Of a stretch of DNA of 64,000 nucleotides, positions 29,904 through 61,107 are shown one piece after another. A program made the position numbers and the translations under genes. The stretch's first letter is position 1. Every line of letters begins with the position of its first letter. The notes under the pieces were generated by a model. The model was not told where the DNA came from. It searched no databases and was given only the letters and a program-made list of their open reading frames with translations. Location: assembly GCA_965222075.1 (NCBI GenBank), contig OZ244937.1, positions 1,568,001 to 1,632,000 of the forward strand. Direction: 5' to 3'. The stretch is from Candidatus Latescibacterota bacterium. Lineage in GTDB: Bacteria > Latescibacterota > UBA2968 > GCA-2709665.

Positions 29904-32900
29904 TCACAGCTTCAACGCTTTGGTTTCGCTTCCGGAGTTGGGAATCGAAATCCGGTCGCCCGGTTTGAAATCCAGAATCTCGAACCGCCTGCCTGCCTGC
30001 TTGCGCCTGTCTGCGTGCGACGCACAGGCAGGCGCTGCGCGCAGGCAAGCCTGCAGCCCCTCCACCGATTCCAGCCGGATCTTCTTAAACGCCAGCAAAT
30101 CGACGATGCGGGACTGAAACGACCCGTCCTCCGTGCGCAGCACCTTCCCCTGGTATTCGCCCTTGTCTCCGCTGTTGTTGAAGCCCCATGCAAACGCAAG
30201 CGGCACGTCGCAGACCAGGACATCCGGGGCCTCAACCGCTTTGACCGTCCCCCTCACCAGCCGGGGATCGCCGTGCTGCAGGACGAGCCGGGCGTTCTGC
30301 CCACCCACGGCGGAGACAACCCGGTAGCCCGAACCGTGAGAATAGGGCGCGTCCGCTTCGGCCGCGTCCACCCGGCACAGCCGCCCGTCCAGGCGCATCC
30401 CGTCGGGCAGATCCCGGTCAATCGCCACGGATTCCGCATCGGCATCCACACCCGCGATCCGGGCCTCAAAACGCGCCTCCGGGAGCGTCGTTTCCGCATC
30501 GCCAAACCGCAAGCGCGTCCCTTCTACCAGGCACAGCTCCACCCGGCCGTTCGCCTCCCGAACGACCCCGAACCGCCCCTCAAGCGCAATCGGAACGCCC
30601 GCTTCGTCCCGGACCTGGACCGATCCGTCACGCGAGAAAAGGACCGTATCGCGTCGGCCGTCGGCCAGGTGTACCCGCACGGCCACGCTCCCGCTGTCCA
30701 CGTCGCGCGCAAGCACGCTTGCCCCCACCACGTTGCGCGCGCCGGAAAACGCCTCCAGCACGCTAACGAACAGGCTCTTCAGATCCTCCCCCTCCCGGCG
30801 GAGTATCACGCGATGAATCTGCTGCGCGCCTCTCAGGTCGGGTCCTTTTGCCGCGATCAGGGTCGCCGCCGGGTCGGCCGGAAACCACACGCCGAAACGG
30901 GTATCCCGCGCATCCCCAAACGTCCAGAGCGCGTATGCGTCCCGATCCAGGCAGGCGGTTTTCACATCGTGGATAAACGCGTACCCGTTCCCGGGCGGTG
31001 AGAGCCATCCGTAGGGCAGCGGACTTCCATCCGGCGCGGCCACGCCCTGGATGCGATCGTTCGGACCGATCCGTTCCCCCCAACTCTTCCCGGGCGCATT
31101 CGCCTCTTCCGAGCCGTCCACCGTCCCCAGCGCAGCCAGCGTCCACACCCCGGGACGGGCGGCAGGAGACACGCCCTCCAGGGAAAACGCCCCCGAATCC
31201 CCCTCCACGAATTTGGGTCCGTTCATCGCATAGTCGTGCATACGCCCGCCGGCCACCGGGAAAATATCCACCGTATAGGACGTCTCCTCGTCCACATCGC
31301 AAAAAATCAGCGCCCGGCGGTACTCGGTCGCCCCCTGGTGGCTCCTGGACAGCGGCGCGGAATACTCCGCGATCTTCACACCCCCCAGATCCTCGAAAGC
31401 AACCAGGTTCGCGCTGGGCACGAACTCGTAGCCCTGAGACGTCGGGATATCCTCGTTTACCGTCACCATCGCGTGGGAGATCGCCCGCATGCCCCACCCC
31501 CGATGCACGTGCGAACCGGCCAGCGCGTAGCCCACGTCTTCGATCACGGTCCGGCCCTTATCGTAGAGAAACAGCGCCAGCTGATCGTCCTGTGCCAGCA
31601 GGTTCGCGCCCCCCCGCACAATCAACGCCCGCGCCCGGTCTCCCGTCCCGCTTCGTAGCACCACCACCCCCTTGTGCCCGGCGAACGAAGAAGTGGATGG
31701 AAACCCGCCTGCCTGCGCAGCGTACTGCGCTGCAGGCAGGCCCCCGGCTTCCCCGGTCGGCCCCGGAACGGTATTGAACAGCGCCCAGGTGCCACGCCGG
31801 ACGTTCTCCGCCTTGCCATCCGACAGATCCAGCATCAGCTGCTCCGCCCGCTGCCGGGTCTTTGCGTCCCCACTTCGGAAATAGAGCCGTTCCAACAGAG
31901 ACCAGTGGCTGGACATCACCTCCCGTTCGGACGGCGGCCAGTAGCCCGGCCGCGCGTTCGTATTTCCGTAAGACGGAATGCGCCCGCACGCCCGGATCAA
32001 CTCGGTATACTCCAGGCACAGACGGACCAGACGGGGGTGGTCAAAGGCGTTTTGCATGCCCATCAACGCTTCCGCCTGAGGATAATCCCCGGCGGAAGCG
32101 TACTTGCCGGGATCGTAGTGGTAGAACAACTCCGCAACATCCTGCATCAGCGTGCCGGAGAAATACGCGTACATCTCCGAGTTCTCATAATATCCCCCAT
32201 CCCTGCCGATCACATTCTCCAGAAACGCCCGGAAAGCGCGGCCTGTCCAGGTGATGAACTCGGGTCTATCCGTCGCCAGCCCGATCGACAGCAGCGCCCG
32301 GTACCCGTCCAGCTCGTGGTTCTGAAAGTGTGTGAGATTCCCCTCCCACAGATTGTAACCCCCCCCTTCGGTCATCACGTAATCCTCTAACATGCCCTGG
32401 GCAATATTCTCCCGAATGCGAATGCGCCCGTTCCCCCGTGTCGGGGACACCTCGTCCATCCCGGAGAGGCCGGCCAGCAGGTCGTAGGCCTGCATGTCCA
32501 CAAAACGCTGCCGGTTGACGTGGCAGGTCTCGGCCTGCATCCGCCCCATCTCCCGCTCTTCGCCTTCCGGAATATCCAGCGGCCCGATCGTGGTGGGAGA
32601 CAATGTGGCCAGCGCGTCGTAGATCAGCAGCGCCTTCTCTCCAAACCGCGTCTCTCCGGTAATCGCATAGGCCAGGGCCAGGTTCAGCAGGGCATTGTCC
32701 GTCGGCCCGCCGGACCCGTAGGAGTAGGTCCCCAGCATACTCACGATAAAACTGTTCCACACCGGCACCGGCGCAAACCACTTTCCATCGTCATAAAAAC
32801 CGTGCCCCTCGTCCCGGAACGGAGACCCTTTCCGATCCTCCGGATATTCCCGCCCGCATGCCCCGCAGAACGCACGCCCGGGCTGAGACAGATCGCATTG

Positions 32901-33152
32901 CCAGGCCGCCTTGCAGCAGGGCGTGCCGTTCCGCCCGCTGCAAAAAATCGACCCCCGCCCGGGCACCAGACTCAGAATCTCCCCGTCGGGCACCCGCACC
33001 CACCTCTCCGCAACCTCGCTTATCCGTGCCCATTCCCGTGCGGCCCACGCCTGTGTTTGAATATTGCTACGTGCCTGGCGAATCGCGTCCGGCGTGTACC
33101 AGATGGACCTTCCCGGCTGTGGAATCGGCGCATCCAAATCGACAGGTCGCAT
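29904..33152 (-). CDS. Heparinase II/III-like lyase (1082 aa) carrying two palindromic insertion loci
   Basis: LALAYAITG, FQNHE, DGGYYENSEMY, GVVVLRSG, DDQLAL, SHAMVTVNE. Confidence 0.8.
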   Translation of the reverse strand: MRPVDLDAPIPQPGRSIWYTPDAIRQARSNIQTQAWAAREWARISEVAERWVRVPDGEILSLVPGRGSIFCSGRNGTPCCKAAWQCDLSQPGRAFCGACGREYPEDRKGSPFRDEGHGFYDDGKWFAPVPVWNSFIVSMLGTYSYGSGGPTDNALLNLALAYAITGETRFGEKALLIYDALATLSPTTIGPLDIPEGEEREMGRMQAETCHVNRQRFVDMQAYDLLAGLSGMDEVSPTRGNGRIRIRENIAQGMLEDYVMTEGGGYNLWEGNLTHFQNHELDGYRALLSIGLATDRPEFITWTGRAFRAFLENVIGRDGGYYENSEMYAYFSGTLMQDVAELFYHYDPGKYASAGDYPQAEALMGMQNAFDHPRLVRLCLEYTELIRACGRIPSYGNTNARPGYWPPSEREVMSSHWSLLERLYFRSGDAKTRQRAEQLMLDLSDGKAENVRRGTWALFNTVPGPTGEAGGLPAAQYAAQAGGFPSTSSFAGHKGVVVLRSGTGDRARALIVRGGANLLAQDDQLALFLYDKGRTVIEDVGYALAGSHVHRGWGMRAISHAMVTVNEDIPTSQGYEFVPSANLVAFEDLGGVKIAEYSAPLSRSHQGATEYRRALIFCDVDEETSYTVDIFPVAGGRMHDYAMNGPKFVEGDSGAFSLEGVSPAARPGVWTLAALGTVDGSEEANAPGKSWGERIGPNDRIQGVAAPDGSPLPYGWLSPPGNGYAFIHDVKTACLDRDAYALWTFGDARDTRFGVWFPADPAATLIAAKGPDLRGAQQIHRVILRREGEDLKSLFVSVLEAFSGARNVVGASVLARDVDSGSVAVRVHLADGRRDTVLFSRDGSVQVRDEAGVPIALEGRFGVVREANGRVELCLVEGTRLRFGDAETTLPEARFEARIAGVDADAESVAIDRDLPDGMRLDGRLCRVDAAEADAPYSHGSGYRVVSAVGGQNARLVLQHGDPRLVRGTVKAVEAPDVLVCDVPLAFAWGFNNSGDKGEYQGKVLRTEDGSFQSRIVDLLAFKKIRLESVEGLQACLRAAPACASHADRRKQAGRRFEILDFKPGDRISIPNSGSETKALKL
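29996..30049. mobile_element. Nested palindromic mini-insertion (27-nt outer + 27-nt inner at 30006-30032), in frame
   Basis: Inner unit is identical to 36392-36418; outer is the reverse complement of 1035-1061. Removal gives EGLQAGRRFEI. Confidence 0.82.
31708..31740. mobile_element. 33-nt palindromic mini-insertion, in frame (LPAAQYAAQAG)
   Basis: cctgcctgcgcagcgtactgcgctgcaggcagg. Confidence 0.78.
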
Positions 33153-34177: not shown

Positions 34178-35647
34178 TCAATACAGGTCTTCCGGTGTGG
34201 TGACGGGACACCACCGTGCGGTGACCAGAGCGTCCGTCAGGGCGTTCCGCGCTTCGGGCGTGCCAACACGCCTGAGCGCCAGAGCAGCATAAAACCGGTT
34301 GTACCTGTCATCGTCTTTCAACGCCTTTACCAGGCCCGGCACAGCCGGGGCTGCAGACGGGCCGATTTTCGCCAGCGTCATCGCGGCGTTGCGGCGTACC
34401 CGGTAGTCCCGGTCCGCCAACACATCGGTCAACACGCGAACCGTGGCCGGGGAGAACGCCTCGACCGCGCCCAGGGCCTCAACAGCGTTGCGGCGCACCC
34501 ACCAGTGGTCGTCGCTCAAGCGATCCACAAGGGCCGGTACCGCTGAGCCGGCGCCGGGGCCGATTTTGGCGATCACATCAACCGCCATAGCCCGCACCCA
34601 CCAGTGATCGTCACCGAAAACATCGACCAGGGCCGGGACTGCGGGTGGCCCGATGACAGACAGGGCCACTGCCGCACAGCCTGCGGTGGGATTGGTGCCG
34701 TGCGCATTGTCCGGCGTTTTGGCAGTTGTCTCTTCGATGGACGCCAGGGTTTCCCGGCGCATGGCATCGATCAGAACGGGGACGGCAGGTTCTCCGATGG
34801 CGCCCAGGGCGAAGGCTCCGTTCAGACGGACGGTTTCCGATTCGTCGCGCAGGGCTTCAAGCAGGCGGGGGACGGCTTTCTCTGCAGCTTCCGAACGAAG
34901 GGCGTCGGGTGCGTACCGGCCGCAGAGCCACGACCAGACGTCCAGCGATACGGCCCTGTCCGGAGCAGGGGCATCCCACTCATTGCTGCTGTGATTCCAG
35001 GATGGGAACTGAGGCTCTTGGGTGCGGACGAACTGGAATTTGAGCATATACCGTTTGTTGGCGCTCACATTCGGGGTTGCCCGGTGCCAGGCGTCGAAGT
35101 GGATGAGTGCAACGGTTCCGGCCTTGCCGCAGATCGACACGGCCGGTTCGCGGGTGTACTCAGGATCGGGGTCTGAGACCGTCCTGTAGGTGTGCAGACC
35201 GGACAGAAGGCCGGACGGACCCATGTCTTCGGTCGTATCCTGGGGGTAATAAAAGGCCAGCACCCAGTGAAAGCGTGGGTGACGGATGTTGTGGTCGAAG
35301 ACGTAGCAGTCCTTGTGCCAGCTCTGGCCCTTCCCGCCGGGTGGATTGAGGTGGCAGTGGCGGTGGGGATTCAGGATATAACCCGGCCCCAGGAGGCTGG
35401 TAAGCGCGCCGCACACGGCCGGATGGTCGAAAACCTCCTGAATCCGGGGAACTCTGGGCAGAATATTGTTTCCGACATTGCCCTCTTTTTCGAATACGGT
35501 TTCAATCTGCCGGAAGATGCTTTCGTGGAAAGAAGCGGGATAATCGGCCTGGACGGTCGTATAACCATCCACGATGAACTGCTGGACCGCAGCGTCGTCC
35601 AGAAGATACGCCTGGTCTGCCACATTCCACCTCACTTTCATGTCCAA
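34178..35647 (-). CDS. Phytanoyl-CoA dioxygenase (PhyH)-like domain + HEAT repeats
   Basis: QSWHKD, MGPS, HFDAWHRA, R.MLKFQF, followed by repeated AVPALV..L.D..WVR units. Confidence 0.88.
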   Translation of the reverse strand: MDMKVRWNVADQAYLLDDAAVQQFIVDGYTTVQADYPASFHESIFRQIETVFEKEGNVGNNILPRVPRIQEVFDHPAVCGALTSLLGPGYILNPHRHCHLNPPGGKGQSWHKDCYVFDHNIRHPRFHWVLAFYYPQDTTEDMGPSGLLSGLHTYRTVSDPDPEYTREPAVSICGKAGTVALIHFDAWHRATPNVSANKRYMLKFQFVRTQEPQFPSWNHSSNEWDAPAPDRAVSLDVWSWLCGRYAPDALRSEAAEKAVPRLLEALRDESETVRLNGAFALGAIGEPAVPVLIDAMRRETLASIEETTAKTPDNAHGTNPTAGCAAVALSVIGPPAVPALVDVFGDDHWWVRAMAVDVIAKIGPGAGSAVPALVDRLSDDHWWVRRNAVEALGAVEAFSPATVRVLTDVLADRDYRVRRNAAMTLAKIGPSAAPAVPGLVKALKDDDRYNRFYAALALRRVGTPEARNALTDALVTARWCPVTTPEDLY

Positions 35648-35779
35648 CGTCCCCGGGGGCCTCCCTCAAAGCGGGTGACCGGGACCGCCGGGATGAGGGT
35701 CTATGTCAGGTATCGTGCGCTTTTTCGTATCAGCAAGATAATACCTCTCGCCACGATACACAATGATTTATGACGCTAT

Positions 35780-35807
35780 GTAGGGGCGGTTCGCGAACCG
35801 CCCCTAC
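35780..35807. repeat. GTAG-type REP palindrome
   Basis: Perfect palindrome GTAGGGGCGGTTCGCGAACCGCCCCTAC. Confidence 0.8.
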
Positions 35808-35936
35808 AAAACCACCGTCATCGAAACCGACATCGAGGAGGCGAACGGCGACCGGAGCCCCCGAACCACACCTGGCGGACATTTCGGCAGCAATGCGGCC
35901 CGGGTCGGCCGGTGTCACCGGGTGCTCACAAAAAGG

Positions 35937-35965
35937 AAAGCGGCCCTTGCGGACCGCTTTTTCCC
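35937..35965 (-). terminator. Intrinsic terminator-like hairpin (identical copy at 37948-37976)
   Basis: aaagcggcccttgcggaccgctttttccc, ~35 nt after a minus-strand stop. Confidence 0.65.
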
Positions 35966-36217
35966 CACGACTTGTTGCTGAAGGTGTGGAATGCGTACTT
36001 ATTCAAAAACCTCAAATTGACCGTTCCTGACGATCAGAACAGTCGCTTCGTATACCGCGTCCCCATCGTTGTTAAAAGAGAACTGGCCTAAAATCGTGTC
36101 CAGATTTCTGATACCCGCCATCGCATCTCGAATCGCGCTCGCCTCTGTCGACTAGATGATCCGAAGAATAAAAAATTAGACGGTCTCTGCCTTCGATTCT
36201 ATTTTCCTTATCGTTTA

Positions 36218-36242
36218 CCTGTCTGCCATCTGCACAGGCAGG
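36218..36242. mobile_element. 25-nt palindromic mini-insertion immediately before the transposase stop codon
   Basis: cctgtctgccatctgcacaggcagg; minus-strand flanks GGA^TAA. Confidence 0.85.
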
Positions 36243-36391
36243 TCCGAGGATTCGGTCCAGTTGCACCAAGCCTACAACGGCTCCTGCAATCATCGGGAAC
36301 AGCCCCGCTCCCAGGCGATAATCTTCGCGAAGGATGCGCCATCCTTTGATGCGACGGATGCTGTGTTCCACATAAATACGCTGTTGGGCTA

Positions 36392-36418
36392 CCTGTCTGC
36401 GTGCGACGCACAGGCAGG
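36392..36418. mobile_element. 27-nt palindromic mini-insertion in the transposase (in frame)
   Basis: cctgtctgcgtgcgacgcacaggcagg; removal restores ENRQIAQQRIYVEH. Confidence 0.85.
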
Positions 36419-36531
36419 TCTGCCTGTTCTCCAGACGTTGTTCTGAGGTGAGTTCACCCCCCTTTGGCTTTTTATGGGGTGAGATGATCTGGGGATGGGC
36501 TTGACTCTGATAGCCTTTATCTCCCAGTTTA

Positions 36532-36556
36532 CCTGTCTGCCATCTGCACAGGCAGG
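36532..36556. mobile_element. 25-nt palindromic mini-insertion that frameshifts the transposase
   Basis: Identical to 36218-36242; removal restores NADKLGDKGY. Confidence 0.88.
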
Positions 36557-37574
36557 TCGGCATTGGGAAATTGGGAGTCCACGCCACTTTCTTCGTAAAC
36601 TCGAATATCAGCTTTGGGTCCACGATGGCCTGCATCCACGCTGAGGATCTCTCCCTTTTTATCTGTGGCCACTTGGGTCTTGATCGTGTGGCGCTTGCGC
36701 TTACCCGAGTAGACCTGCCTTTGTCTGTGGTCCACAGAAGGCCTGCAAATGGGCGTTTCAAAGCTGTCAATTAGAACCCGATCCACCTCATCGGGATGCC
36801 AGGAAGGGTCGCTTTTCTTCCACTTCTTCTCCCCATCAAAGCGCTGAGTGGGGCAGACCGCTTGCAGAATCGGCACCACTTCGTGAAAGGTGTTTTCGGA
36901 GGTGTCCGCACTCACACCAAACAGTTGCCCCACCAACGCGTGGGATACGTTGTGACGCAAATAGAGCAAACTCATCAACACCTCTTGATAGGGCCTTAAC
37001 CGTCGCTTGCGTCCTCCCCCTACCCTACGCTTGCGATCAGGACGTGATGCTTGGGCTTGCTGGCGACGTTCTATCATCACCGGCAACACAGCCTCCAGCA
37101 GTTGGGACAAAGCCACTGGCGTAAGACCAAACAGAGCACGGATCTTTCCCGGATGGGTCGTATCAAGGGTGTGCAGATTCATCATCGCTGGCTCCTTGCG
37201 TAAATAGTCAAACAACCTACTCCTGAAGTAGCAGTGAGACAGTATTACGCAAATGGCTTGCCAAAGTCCAGCACTATTTCTCGGATCATCTACTGGGCAT
37301 TCAAGATCGCCCGCGCAAGAATAGGGAATATCGGTGGGAATCTCAAGCTTGCGAGCTTGAGTAAATTTCTGTCTTGCGGACAATGCGAAATTTGCAGATA
37401 TTTGTAGGCCTGGGTAGCCTTATACGGGAGTAGCTGAAACATCGCCCCTGCCCCGGTGCTACCCCCCAAAACAAACGCGAGAAGCATAACCAACATAAGC
37501 CATTAGGCCATCCTTTCGTTCCACAACAAATGGAATAACTGGTTCCAACACACACAACGAAATGAGACCCACTC

Positions 37575-37781
37575 ATGCAACAAGCCCCACCATCACCCGA
37601 TTTTGCCGCCAGGATTTCCCGCCTCGAGGGCGTAGTTGAACAGATGAACCAGCGCCTCACGGCCATCGAAGCACGCCTTGCGAACCTCGAAGCTCGCCTT
37701 GACAGCGCCTTCCGCTGGATTATCGGAATTCAATTCACGTCGCTTGTCGCCCTCGGAACGCTCATCCTGGTTAAGCTCTAA
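37575..37781 (+). CDS. Small coiled-coil protein with C-terminal TM helix (DUF1640/CCDC90-like)
   Basis: Heptads RLTAIEARLANLEARLD, then FRWIIGIQFTSLVALGTLILVKL. Confidence 0.65.
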   Translation: MQQAPPSPDFAARISRLEGVVEQMNQRLTAIEARLANLEARLDSAFRWIIGIQFTSLVALGTLILVKL

Positions 37782-37947
37782 CCCCACGCCGGGCGCCGGT
37801 CCACATCCGCGATTGACCGACGCTTGCGTCCGACATCGAGGACCGTTACGGCGTTGTTGCCGAAGATTCAGCAGGTGAGCGTTGCCCGGTAAGCTCGAAG
37901 CTTATGGGGCGACCTCCACCTTGCAGGATTCCGGCATTCCCAATGAA

Positions 37948-37976
37948 AAAGCGGCCCTTGCGGACCGCTTTTTCCC
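37948..37976 (-). terminator. Intrinsic terminator of the substrate-binding protein gene
   Basis: GC hairpin flanked by A and T runs, ~45 nt downstream of the stop at 38019. Confidence 0.7.
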
Positions 37977-38018
37977 TACCACATTGATCTATTCAATTTT
38001 GAGAAGACAGACGCGGGG

Positions 38019-57382: not shown

Positions 57383-57416
57383 CCTGCCTGCGCCGCTGCC
57401 GTTCCCGGCAGGCAGG
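57383..57416. mobile_element. 34-nt palindromic mini-insertion, intergenic
   Basis: cctgcctgcgccgctgccgttcccggcaggcagg; flanks AA^TC. Confidence 0.7.
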
Positions 57417-61074: not shown

Positions 61075-61107
61075 CCTGTCTGCAGTGCGGGGCACCGCAC
61101 AGGCAGG
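61075..61107. mobile_element. 33-nt palindromic mini-insertion, intergenic
   Basis: cctgtctgcagtgcggggcaccgcacaggcagg; flanks GA^TC. Confidence 0.78.

Follow-up and report, generated by a model that had tools for sequence, protein, structure and literature searches.

The stretch of DNA analysed here comprises 64,000 nt of the genome of a Candidatus Latescibacterota bacterium (contig OZ244937.1, positions 1,568,001 to 1,632,000) and is referred to below as the window. On its minus strand it contains an insertion sequence (IS) whose transposase gene is interrupted by three short stretches, named here mini-elements 1 to 3. A sequence-only reading had taken them for mini-elements inserted, without target duplication, into an otherwise intact IS5-family transposase gene, and had proposed that either the unselected insertion rate is very high or the elements preferentially target and disable incoming mobile DNA. 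The locus raises the questions of whether the stretches are indeed insertions, how such elements might enter DNA, and whether their density in this IS reflects targeting. The results presented below indicate that the three stretches are very probably separate insertions of a family of micro-elements into a single IS of the DDE type.

The three stretches and their empty sites

The three stretches all lie on the minus strand within a total span of 339 bp, match the pattern CCTGCCTGTGC..GCAGACAGG and share the form CCTGCCTG...CAGACAGG (coordinates in Table 1). Four matches to the former pattern were found in the window, versus none in 100 shuffles. The minus-strand flanks read CCGA^TAAAC, CAGA^TAGCC and CGGA^TAAAC (the caret marks the insertion point), all three sites being GA^TA. 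Coordinates and flanks agree with the earlier description of insertions of 25, 27 and 25 nt, in one orientation and within 340 bp. Mini-element 1 shifts the frame and truncates the transposase within its DDE domain; mini-element 2 is in frame, and mini-element 3 lies in the stop codon. The 218-amino-acid (aa) 5′ fragment of the open reading frame (ORF) reads into mini-element 1 and ends at a TAA immediately beyond it, while a second frame, running from 36545 to 36072 on the minus strand, matches the second half of DDE_Tnp_4.

Deletion of the three stretches by script left a 297-aa ORF in an IS of 1061 bp. This restored ORF was 85% identical, over 297 aa and with no gaps, to the 297-aa ORF of an IS present in G004, a genome of the same family and another genus; 20 full-length IS matches found there have a 329-aa open frame, and two more are shorter or broken. 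The DNA identity between the G004 IS and the window IS was 75%. When three of the G004 copies were aligned with the window, their sites were uninterrupted, and the gaps measured exactly 25, 27 and 25 columns. The homologues read without a break through ADKLGDKGY and ENRQIAQQR, the two peptides at the junctions, and on to ..RILG-stop, in agreement with the claim that precise removal of the stretches restores both peptides, the native stop and a 297-aa ORF. Among the 120 homologues listed (of 1107 at E <= 1e-20), most were 294–297 aa long, and the six that were aligned were uninterrupted at the element sites, with the exception of P0004 (see below).

The micro-elements are polymorphic in natural populations. 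A search for empty sites among other copies of the IS, as the sequence-only reading had suggested, found them in the G004 copies, in public contigs and in the protein P0002. The public runs that match the stretch come from nine studies, including sponge metatranscriptome libraries, and the contigs of four of these runs (X2, X6, X13 and X18) were compared; this evidence consists of assembled contigs, from which rare variants may drop out. The natural contigs without elements were about 98% identical to the window IS. An X18 contig of 1157 bases, differing in 21 other letters, was without the 25 nt at 36218, the 27 nt at 36392 and the 25 nt at 36532, while an X13 contig of 861 bases was without the elements at 36392 and 36532 and had a depth of 46.5, versus 9 for the flanks (the depth figures, summed over metagenome contigs, carry little weight as evidence). 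In X2 and again in X13, a contig was found in which position 36150 is joined to 37292; it skips 1141 bases (1138 + 3) and represents the locus without the IS. The contigs of X6, an RNA library, crossed mini-elements 1 and 2 unaltered; no X6 contig was without an element and the X2 contigs contained filled forms only, with no empty site, in both cases with the proviso that contigs drop rare variants. X6 coverage is confined to the IS interior (36362–37288) and stops short of the flanks, which may reflect transcription of the IS or a carry-over of multi-copy DNA into this library.

Homologous proteins predicted in public data revealed further alleles. P0002 (317 aa, 22 member sequences) is nearly identical to the window fragments, open, and empty at sites 1–3: it is continuous through PNADKLGDKGY, ENRQIAQQR and ..RILG. 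It has 20 extra residues after MMNLHTL; these match an insert of 58 letters that the X18 contig has at 37163/37164, with loose ends resembling a family member on the plus strand. P0004 (326 aa) carries the N-terminal insert and mini-element 2 translated in frame, mini-element 1 being absent. At the end of P0122 and P0123, VATD leads into the eight residues and stop codon that mini-element 1 also yields in the window, indicating a 25-nt member at another C-N-G-A^T-A site, and P0121 contains four inserts. The inserts in other alleles of the IS lie at the N-terminus (20 or 10 aa), after VATD, after SVD and at site 1, and across the public alleles at least six distinct GA^T steps of the window IS are filled. 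The N-terminal insert and mini-element 2 occur in three combinations (P0002, N+/2-; P0004, N+/2+; window, N-/2+), implying recurrent insertion, precise loss, recombination or more than one of these. Beyond these close relatives, scans of 80 IS loci from metagenomes (all at most 80% identical, with no near-identical alleles among them) found family members only in L076, a 67%-identical IS from another metagenome with two in-frame members (927–950, 24 nt; 1001–1020, 20 nt), and scans of 30 G004 IS loci found none.

The empty G004 sites, the X18 and X13 contigs, the restored ORF and the homologous proteins all bear out duplication-free insertion into an otherwise intact IS. They also suggest that hairpins of 25–27 nt are among the smallest mobile DNAs observed as filled and empty alleles. 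Mini-element 2, which is in frame and shared with the open-frame allele P0004, would be the older insert, and the identical mini-elements 1 and 3 would be later arrivals, one of which may derive from the other through a short hop. Their 25-nt variant is rare, with six copies in the genome, four of them within the two copies of the IS; the identity of two such rare elements is what points to a hop. A test of local hopping gave weak support: neighbouring non-duplicated elements were identical in 4 of 53 pairs, versus 2.0% of random pairs.

The genome from which the window comes (G000) is a single contig of 5,360,005 bases with 59.3% G+C. The copy boundaries found by self-BLAST, together with a comparison of both copies of the IS in this genome, place the IS core at 36154–37291; it reads AGATGATCCGA...TCGGATCATCT and measures 1138 bp, or 1061 bp once the three inserts are removed. 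The first 11 bases of its terminal inverted repeats (TIRs) match perfectly, and 15 of the 17 do so overall. These core coordinates, the TIRs and the flanking ACT/ACT target site duplication (TSD) had been given correctly from the sequence alone. At independent insertions the TSD was ACT or ATT (the two G000 copies), and ATT in two of the three aligned G004 copies. Pfam matches on both ORF fragments exceeded the cut-offs (PF13613, 1.5e-13; PF13359, 7e-13 and 5e-09). The presence of HTH_Tnp_4 and DDE_Tnp_4, a size of ~1.06 kb with a single 297-aa ORF, short TIRs and a 3-bp A-N-T duplication are likenesses to IS5 / PIF-Harbinger-like elements. A difference from the IS5 family lies in the scores on NF033581, the NCBIfam IS5 equivalog (cut-off 140): the intact 297-aa G004 homologue reached 70.6 bits, and the window fragments 31.1 and 15.8 bits. 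Judged by these features, the window IS is an IS5-like / PIF-Harbinger-like DDE element, in a non-autonomous copy. An Rfam search over 35500–38000 gave just two sub-threshold chance matches. The segment beside the IS (35981–36151) resembles three paralogues elsewhere (79–84% identity), the similarity ending at the IS boundary; since the X2 and X13 contigs join the same flanks without the IS, the truncation of this gene fragment is older than the IS.

Table 1. Positions in the window of the insertion sequence, its parts and the hairpin family members
Feature	Position	Strand	Evidence
IS core	36154..37291	-	self-BLAST, copy comparison, G004 IS alignment, Pfam
TSD ACT (plus-strand letters), low-coordinate copy	36151..36153		copy comparison, G004 alignment, X2/X13 contig junctions
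TSD ACT (plus-strand letters), high-coordinate copy	37292..37294		copy comparison, G004 alignment, X2/X13 contigs
TIR, transposase-proximal end (AGATGATCCGA...)	37275..37291	-	end-to-end comparison
TIR, distal end	36154..36170	+	end-to-end comparison
5′ ORF fragment, 218 aa, HTH_Tnp_4 and first half of DDE_Tnp_4	36529..37185	-	ORF list, Pfam
ORF piece between mini-elements 1 and 2 (KLGDKGY...ENRQ), frame different from that of the 5′ fragment	36420..36530	-	homologue alignment
ORF piece beyond mini-element 2 (AQQRIYVEH...RILG)	36243..36389	-	homologue alignment
Mini-element 1, 25 nt, site GCCGA^TAAAC, frame-shifting	36532..36556	-	pattern search, G004 alignment, X13/X18 contigs
Mini-element 2, 27 nt, site GGCAGA^TAGCC, in frame (adds TCLCVARRQ)	36392..36418	-	pattern search, alignment, X13/X18
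Mini-element 3, 25 nt, identical to mini-element 1, site CTCGGA^TAA within the native stop	36218..36242	-	pattern search, alignment, X18
27-nt variant, same as mini-element 2, within a 1082-aa ORF	30006..30032	-	pattern search, census
33-nt member, arms CCTGCCTG/CAGGCAGG, same 1082-aa ORF, in frame	31708..31740		census
30–34-nt family member	57383..57416		census
33-nt family member	61075..61107	-	census

A genome-wide hairpin family, its target and its distribution

Inspection of the whole genome showed CCTGCCTGCGC and CCTGCCTGTGC to be its two most frequent 11-mers. Hairpins of the form CCTG[CT]CTG...CAG[AG]CAGG occupied 242–245 loci, or 225 after merging overlapping calls. The family consists of imperfect hairpins of 19–39 nt, with length peaks at 33, 27, 30, 36 and 25 nt. 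For 39 elements an uninterrupted paralogous site was found, with no duplicated base, and one of these elements is nested within another. The 39 also include another clean set of sites filled in one copy and empty in its paralogue: of two copies of a UPF0236-type IS (G000:C1:3463599-3465325 and 2831293-2832991; L045 and L043) that are 99–100% identical, one has additional mini-elements of 27, 25 and 25 nt, at GA^TT, CA^TC and GA^TG, and the other is empty at all three sites.

The target rule was derived from the strand-asymmetric members (61 short, 23 long). A C was present at -4 in 49 of the 61 short and 20 of the 23 long members; position -2 was never A, position -1 was a purine in 58/61 and position +1 a pyrimidine in 60/61. 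The commonest form of the target was GA^T (19/61). On these flank statistics, the elements are seen to insert without target duplication, between a purine and a pyrimidine and with C at -4 (C-N-S-R^Y). The GA^TA recognised in the window is a real target and a subset of this wider consensus. The 3′ end of the element, CAGG, itself fits the C-N-S-R pattern.

In 40 related genomes, the family ranged from 0 to ~230 matches per strand, varying even within one genus, a patchy distribution that fits bursts of a mobile family. Other repeats were noticed in the genome. A family of ~200-bp repeats has at least 24 copies that share the junction AAAAGAAGGGCG|CCGCTCAG (e.g. G000 4835717-4835949, 881399-881595 and 4097544-4097743). 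Several of these copies contain the same 33-nt element at the same site, most being empty, which is recurrent insertion at one site or the spread of a filled copy. Overlapping 11-mers of one ~37-nt unit, each found ~87–107 times genome-wide, suggest a large CRISPR-like array, and other abundant 11-mers (CAAGAAAAAGGCC and CCTCCAGCGCCTCC, ~100 each) hint at further repeat families.

The elements accumulate in non-ORF DNA and in decaying transposase genes, and ordinary genes keep almost only members whose length is divisible by three. Of 242 loci, 93 (~38%) lay inside ORFs, 144 between them and 5 at their edges, versus 82% of random positions inside ORFs. In 82 of the 93 in-ORF loci the length was divisible by three, which fits selection against frameshifts, and within ORFs there was a suggestive bias for the sense strand (22 vs 10). 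Densities per Mb were 17.7 elements in unique ORF DNA, 137.8 in unique non-ORF DNA, 49 in repeated ORF DNA and 366.5 in repeated non-ORF DNA; non-ORF DNA is enriched 8-fold, without the family being confined there. A weak point of these figures is that the ORFs (3669, covering 83%) were called with a simple home-made program and do not come from an annotation. In the window IS the density was 2636 per Mb, with three loci in 1138 bp versus ~7 other family loci in the remaining ~62.9 kb, and the assertion that the local density far exceeds the background is correct for window and genome alike. The elements would insert wherever the short target is accessible and accumulate where frameshifts cost nothing; members that shift the frame would be purged from working genes, while dead or dying IS copies would retain whatever lands in them.

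Two ORFs with in-frame members deserve mention. The 1082-aa minus-strand ORF at 29904–33152 of the window is long and high-scoring and holds two of them (27 nt and 33 nt). The ORF of atpC (ATP synthase epsilon) holds a 33-nt in-frame member at G000:C1:390299-390331 (locus L037:1842-2276); in its product the ATP-synt_DE_N match covers 91 residues, 11 more than the 80 positions of the profile.

Origin of the second filled copy and the question of targeting

Self-BLAST detected exactly one other copy of the IS in the genome, at G000:4161425-4162568. This copy contains the same three inserts, has its own flanks and an ATT/ATT TSD, and its 1138-bp core is 100% identical to that of the window, the sole BLAST difference lying within the TSD. 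The different TSDs of the two loci, together with a locus that is empty in other samples, indicate that the filled IS was mobilised in trans, homogenised by recombination or polishing, or transiently repaired. The filled IS, which kept its TIRs, would have been copied once more in trans, or else the copies would have been homogenised by recombination; the chances that an intact relative did the copying are about even. Two observations weigh against this: no intact copy is present in this genome (both copies are filled), while mobilisation in trans needs one, and the perfect identity of the copies is also compatible with gene conversion or assembly polishing. As to the proposal that the elements disable the IS, the coding frame is indeed broken, yet the filled IS was still copied.

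The other explanations differ in what they make of these observations. The notion that the stretches are native parts of the transposase gene, serving as recoding or regulatory hairpins that are bypassed or removed, can practically be set aside. Programmed frameshifting is frequent among IS5-family members, and mini-element 2 preserves the reading frame and is read through in P0004, a predicted protein; however, the homologues listed are mostly 294–297 aa long and the six aligned are uninterrupted except for P0004, related IS copies and the ~98% identical contigs are without exactly these stretches, the same sequences occur at ~225 unrelated loci, a TAA directly follows mini-element 1, whose 25 nt would cause a +1 and not the usual -1 shift, and the RNA-library contigs retain the stretches. 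Homogenisation is unlikely; on this view the identity of the two filled copies would be due not to transposition of a filled IS but to gene conversion of inserts that first appeared in one copy, or to two different copies having been made alike during assembly or polishing. A 100% identity over 1138 bp is typical of conversion or of repeat polishing in metagenome-assembled genomes, and the filled copies are unable to make a full transposase. In X2, however, only filled forms were found and the IS depth is ~5x that of the flanks (117–138 vs 25, again summed contig depths), which suggests several filled copies, and the window locus is empty in X2 and X13, pointing to a recent insertion here. A reversible lock, in which the elements also excise seamlessly and the two copies arose after a transient restoration of the frame, not by mobilisation in trans, appears quite unlikely. 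Since insertion is duplication-free, exact loss would restore the 297-aa ORF; three derived allele combinations exist, no intact copy remains in the genome to act in trans, and a passage of PMC3116915 reports REPIN excision products in Pseudomonas. Recombination among IS copies accounts equally well for the allele combinations, though, and a lock would need three simultaneous excisions. In addition, no X2 contig has an empty site (contigs drop rare variants), and the X6 RNA contigs span mini-elements 1 and 2 unaltered.

The remaining question is whether mobile DNA is targeted. The IS (1067 bp in this count) contains 6 CNGATA sites (CNGAT, 11 + 7), three of them filled, versus 8859 in the 5.36-Mb genome; the AT-containing target is 3–4-fold richer in this IS than in the genome on average. 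Of the 18 clusters with at least three elements, seven overlap ORFs of transposase type (two of them this IS, two UPF0236, and one each DUF772, DDE_Tnp_1 and an rve fragment). Sigma-54 regulators, a UvrD-like helicase, a DNA methylase and non-coding DNA host others. Other broken transposase genes are also multiply filled: UPF0236 copies contain 2 and 4 elements, and DUF772, DDE_Tnp_1 and rve fragments are further cases. At the same time, 168 of the 180 repeated segments longer than 600 bp are without an element, which does not fit a general function against mobile DNA. The high local density would reflect neutrality, an excess of targets and local hopping acting together, not a dedicated anti-IS function. 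Against neutral accumulation alone stands the number of insertions expected in the IS at the non-ORF density, ~0.16, compared with the three seen: something further, a putative preference or hopping, has to be at work. Neutrality, target excess and hopping together may still fall short of explaining three insertions in 1.1 kb, and a degree of preference for IS DNA is possible. The suggestion of the sequence-only reading that the elements target mobile DNA is only partly supported: decayed transposase genes are repeatedly filled and further GA^T sites are filled in other alleles of the IS, but most repeats are clean and 93 of the 242 loci lie in ordinary ORFs.

A genome-defence role, in which the elements preferentially enter incoming IS, plasmid or phage DNA (single-stranded on entry, for example) and silence transposases, is accordingly improbable. 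It would account for the filling of three of the six CNGATA sites in this IS out of the 8859 in the genome, for the GA^T sites (at least six) filled across public alleles, for the two in-frame members in the 67%-identical IS of another metagenome, and for the 7 of 18 clusters on transposase-like ORFs; an IS200-like remnant holds one element as well. The element-free repeated segments, however, include multi-copy and presumably active IS families, and the ordinary ORFs that hold elements include atpC, sigma-54 regulators and a UvrD-like helicase. Open-frame alleles with in-frame elements exist, one of which, the X13 contig, has ~5x the depth of its flanks, and the filled IS was still duplicated. 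G004, with its 20 intact IS copies, has just 2 element loci, which fits opportunity and not defence.

Candidate enzymes and relation to known systems

Seamless insertion 3′ of a tetranucleotide resembling the element's own end CAGG, a stem mismatch that defines the strand, and nesting are the reasons to consider that the elements insert by the single-strand 'peel and paste' mechanism of HUH (Y1) enzymes, as IS200/IS605 and REP/RAYT do; this can be put forward only tentatively. Enzymes were sought with Y1_Tnp, NF047646 and a 255-aa RAYT-like protein in the genome and the 40 relatives, and the flanks of the genes found were inspected. The genome contains one intact IS200-type TnpA (G000:2071937-2072377), one broken one and one 255-aa RAYT-like ORF (G000:C1:3242104-3242871; L062:1477-2244), which scored 55.6 bits on NF047646 (cut-off 80). 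The hairpins that flank the intact TnpA are unrelated to the family. A remnant resembling the N-terminus of an IS200-type TnpA (Y1_Tnp E = 0.11) was also noted at G000:C1:611308-611461 (L052:1458-1611), with a 33-nt family member beside or inside it.

Several results weigh against a single-strand HUH mechanism driven by one of these enzymes. No CCTGCCTG hairpin was found in the loci of the intact TnpA or the RAYT-like gene, no CCTGYCTG within 1.5 kb of the 255-aa RAYT-like ORF, and no RAYT or IS200 gene of this genome had family hairpins in the inspected flanks. The RAYT-like gene is instead bracketed by a direct repeat of two other hairpins, a pair that occurs only twice in the genome, and looks like a solitary IS200-like unit, seemingly with its own ends. 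In three relatives (G009, L054; G021, L055; G002, L057), RAYT genes scoring above the NCBIfam cut-off are flanked by CGAGGGCA..TGCCCTCG arrays in both orientations, in its layout a textbook REP-RAYT arrangement; just three copies of this palindrome are present in G000. Across the 40 relatives, element counts do not follow the presence of Y1_Tnp, of NF047646 or of the 255-aa orthologue. In G019, with 76–90 elements per strand, Y1_Tnp gave no match, while it gave 32 in G004, with 2 elements; orthologues of the 255-aa gene are present in G009, G012, G017 and G019 and not in the element-rich G021, G002, G003 and G024, and RAYTs above the cut-off are also found in the element-poor G004, G005 and G007. 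The orientation of the elements relative to replication, with origin and terminus taken from GC skew, was 58 vs 41, which is not significant, the copies not all being independent, and is weaker than would be expected of insertion into lagging-strand single-stranded DNA. Finally, the hairpins fold weakly (-4.1 and -6.9 kcal/mol; z of -0.7 and -1.6 versus shuffles).

One of the nearest known systems is that of REP/REPIN elements with RAYTs (REP-associated tyrosine transposases). Like the family studied here, REP/REPIN elements are short imperfect palindromes that are non-autonomous, occur in hundreds of copies and show compensatory stem changes, clustering, nesting and a patchy presence across related genomes; a seamless HUH mechanism on single-stranded DNA is proposed (PMC3116915). 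RAYT-like genes are, moreover, present in this genome and its relatives. Unlike in those systems, each RAYT-like gene examined here has another cognate repeat, 38% of the loci lie in ORFs and are not extragenic, the elements are counted as single hairpins of 19–39 nt, and the conserved 5′ tetranucleotide (C-N-S-R) belongs to the target and is not a fixed element end. REPs have a fixed, GTAG-like element end.

The small dispersed repeats (SDR) of Nostocaceae cyanobacteria, reportedly described by Elhai and co-workers in 2008, are said to be hairpins of 21–27 nt, nested and inserted in genes and other repeats. To our knowledge, no transposase is known for them. Compared with SDRs, the elements studied here belong to another phylum (the relatives being Candidatus Latescibacterota) and have another sequence, and filled and empty alleles at the population level and a C-N-S-R^Y rule are shown. 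A likeness is that the insertion site given in PMC5861425 contains a GA^TC step, which is used here in 9 of 99 cases.

With IS200/IS605 and its miniature derivatives (PATEs), the family shares the lack of a target duplication, insertion directly 3′ of a specific short oligonucleotide, mismatch-bearing hairpins that define the strand and a 3′ end (CAGG) resembling the target. The differences are that a single hairpin takes the place of distinct left and right ends, that the elements are several-fold smaller and that, in the case of IS200/IS605, no significant lagging-strand bias was seen here (58 vs 41). The in-frame members recall the Rickettsia palindromic elements (RPEs), described in the review PMC10969869 as palindromic selfish DNA of ~150 bp that encodes a conserved peptide and lies in frame in protein genes, including housekeeping genes. 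Here, 82/93 in-ORF members have a length that is a multiple of three and there is one in atpC, but the elements are 19–39 nt long, mostly in non-coding locations, and have a defined cut site. A full-text literature search found no description of this sequence family, which is not proof of absence, and the motif matches that it listed were unrelated CRISPR or primer text. Taken together, these comparisons suggest that the family belongs with REP/SDR-like micro-mobile DNA, as a variant not described before in the literature searched.

The thrice-filled IS is a clean natural experiment, not a new system. The way in which REP-like and SDR-like micro-repeats move has long been in question; their enzyme is usually just inferred, and filled and empty sites at the same locus are seldom available for them. 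An IS with an intact reading frame provides an internal ruler for insertions; here the material is clean, with empty sites in a related genome, near-identical alleles, 39 paralogous sites, a cut-site rule and varied combinations of alleles, and the mechanism is open to direct tests with oligonucleotides and the genome's few HUH candidates. A bolder and rather doubtful proposal is that hairpins of 19–39 nt in uncultured bacteria associated with sponges form a class of ultra-small mobile DNA not described before, which would integrate and excise seamlessly at C-N-S-R^Y by means of an enzyme other than a cognate flanking RAYT, ride on IS between genomes, and serve as reversible transposase locks and as in-frame peptide inserts in housekeeping proteins. 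For the biology of these bacteria, the finding means that selfish inserts of 27–33 nt can reside in frame in core genes such as atpC, and that IS copies in decay collect smaller parasites and may also carry them, so that mobile DNA is nested within mobile DNA in a phylum that has received little study.

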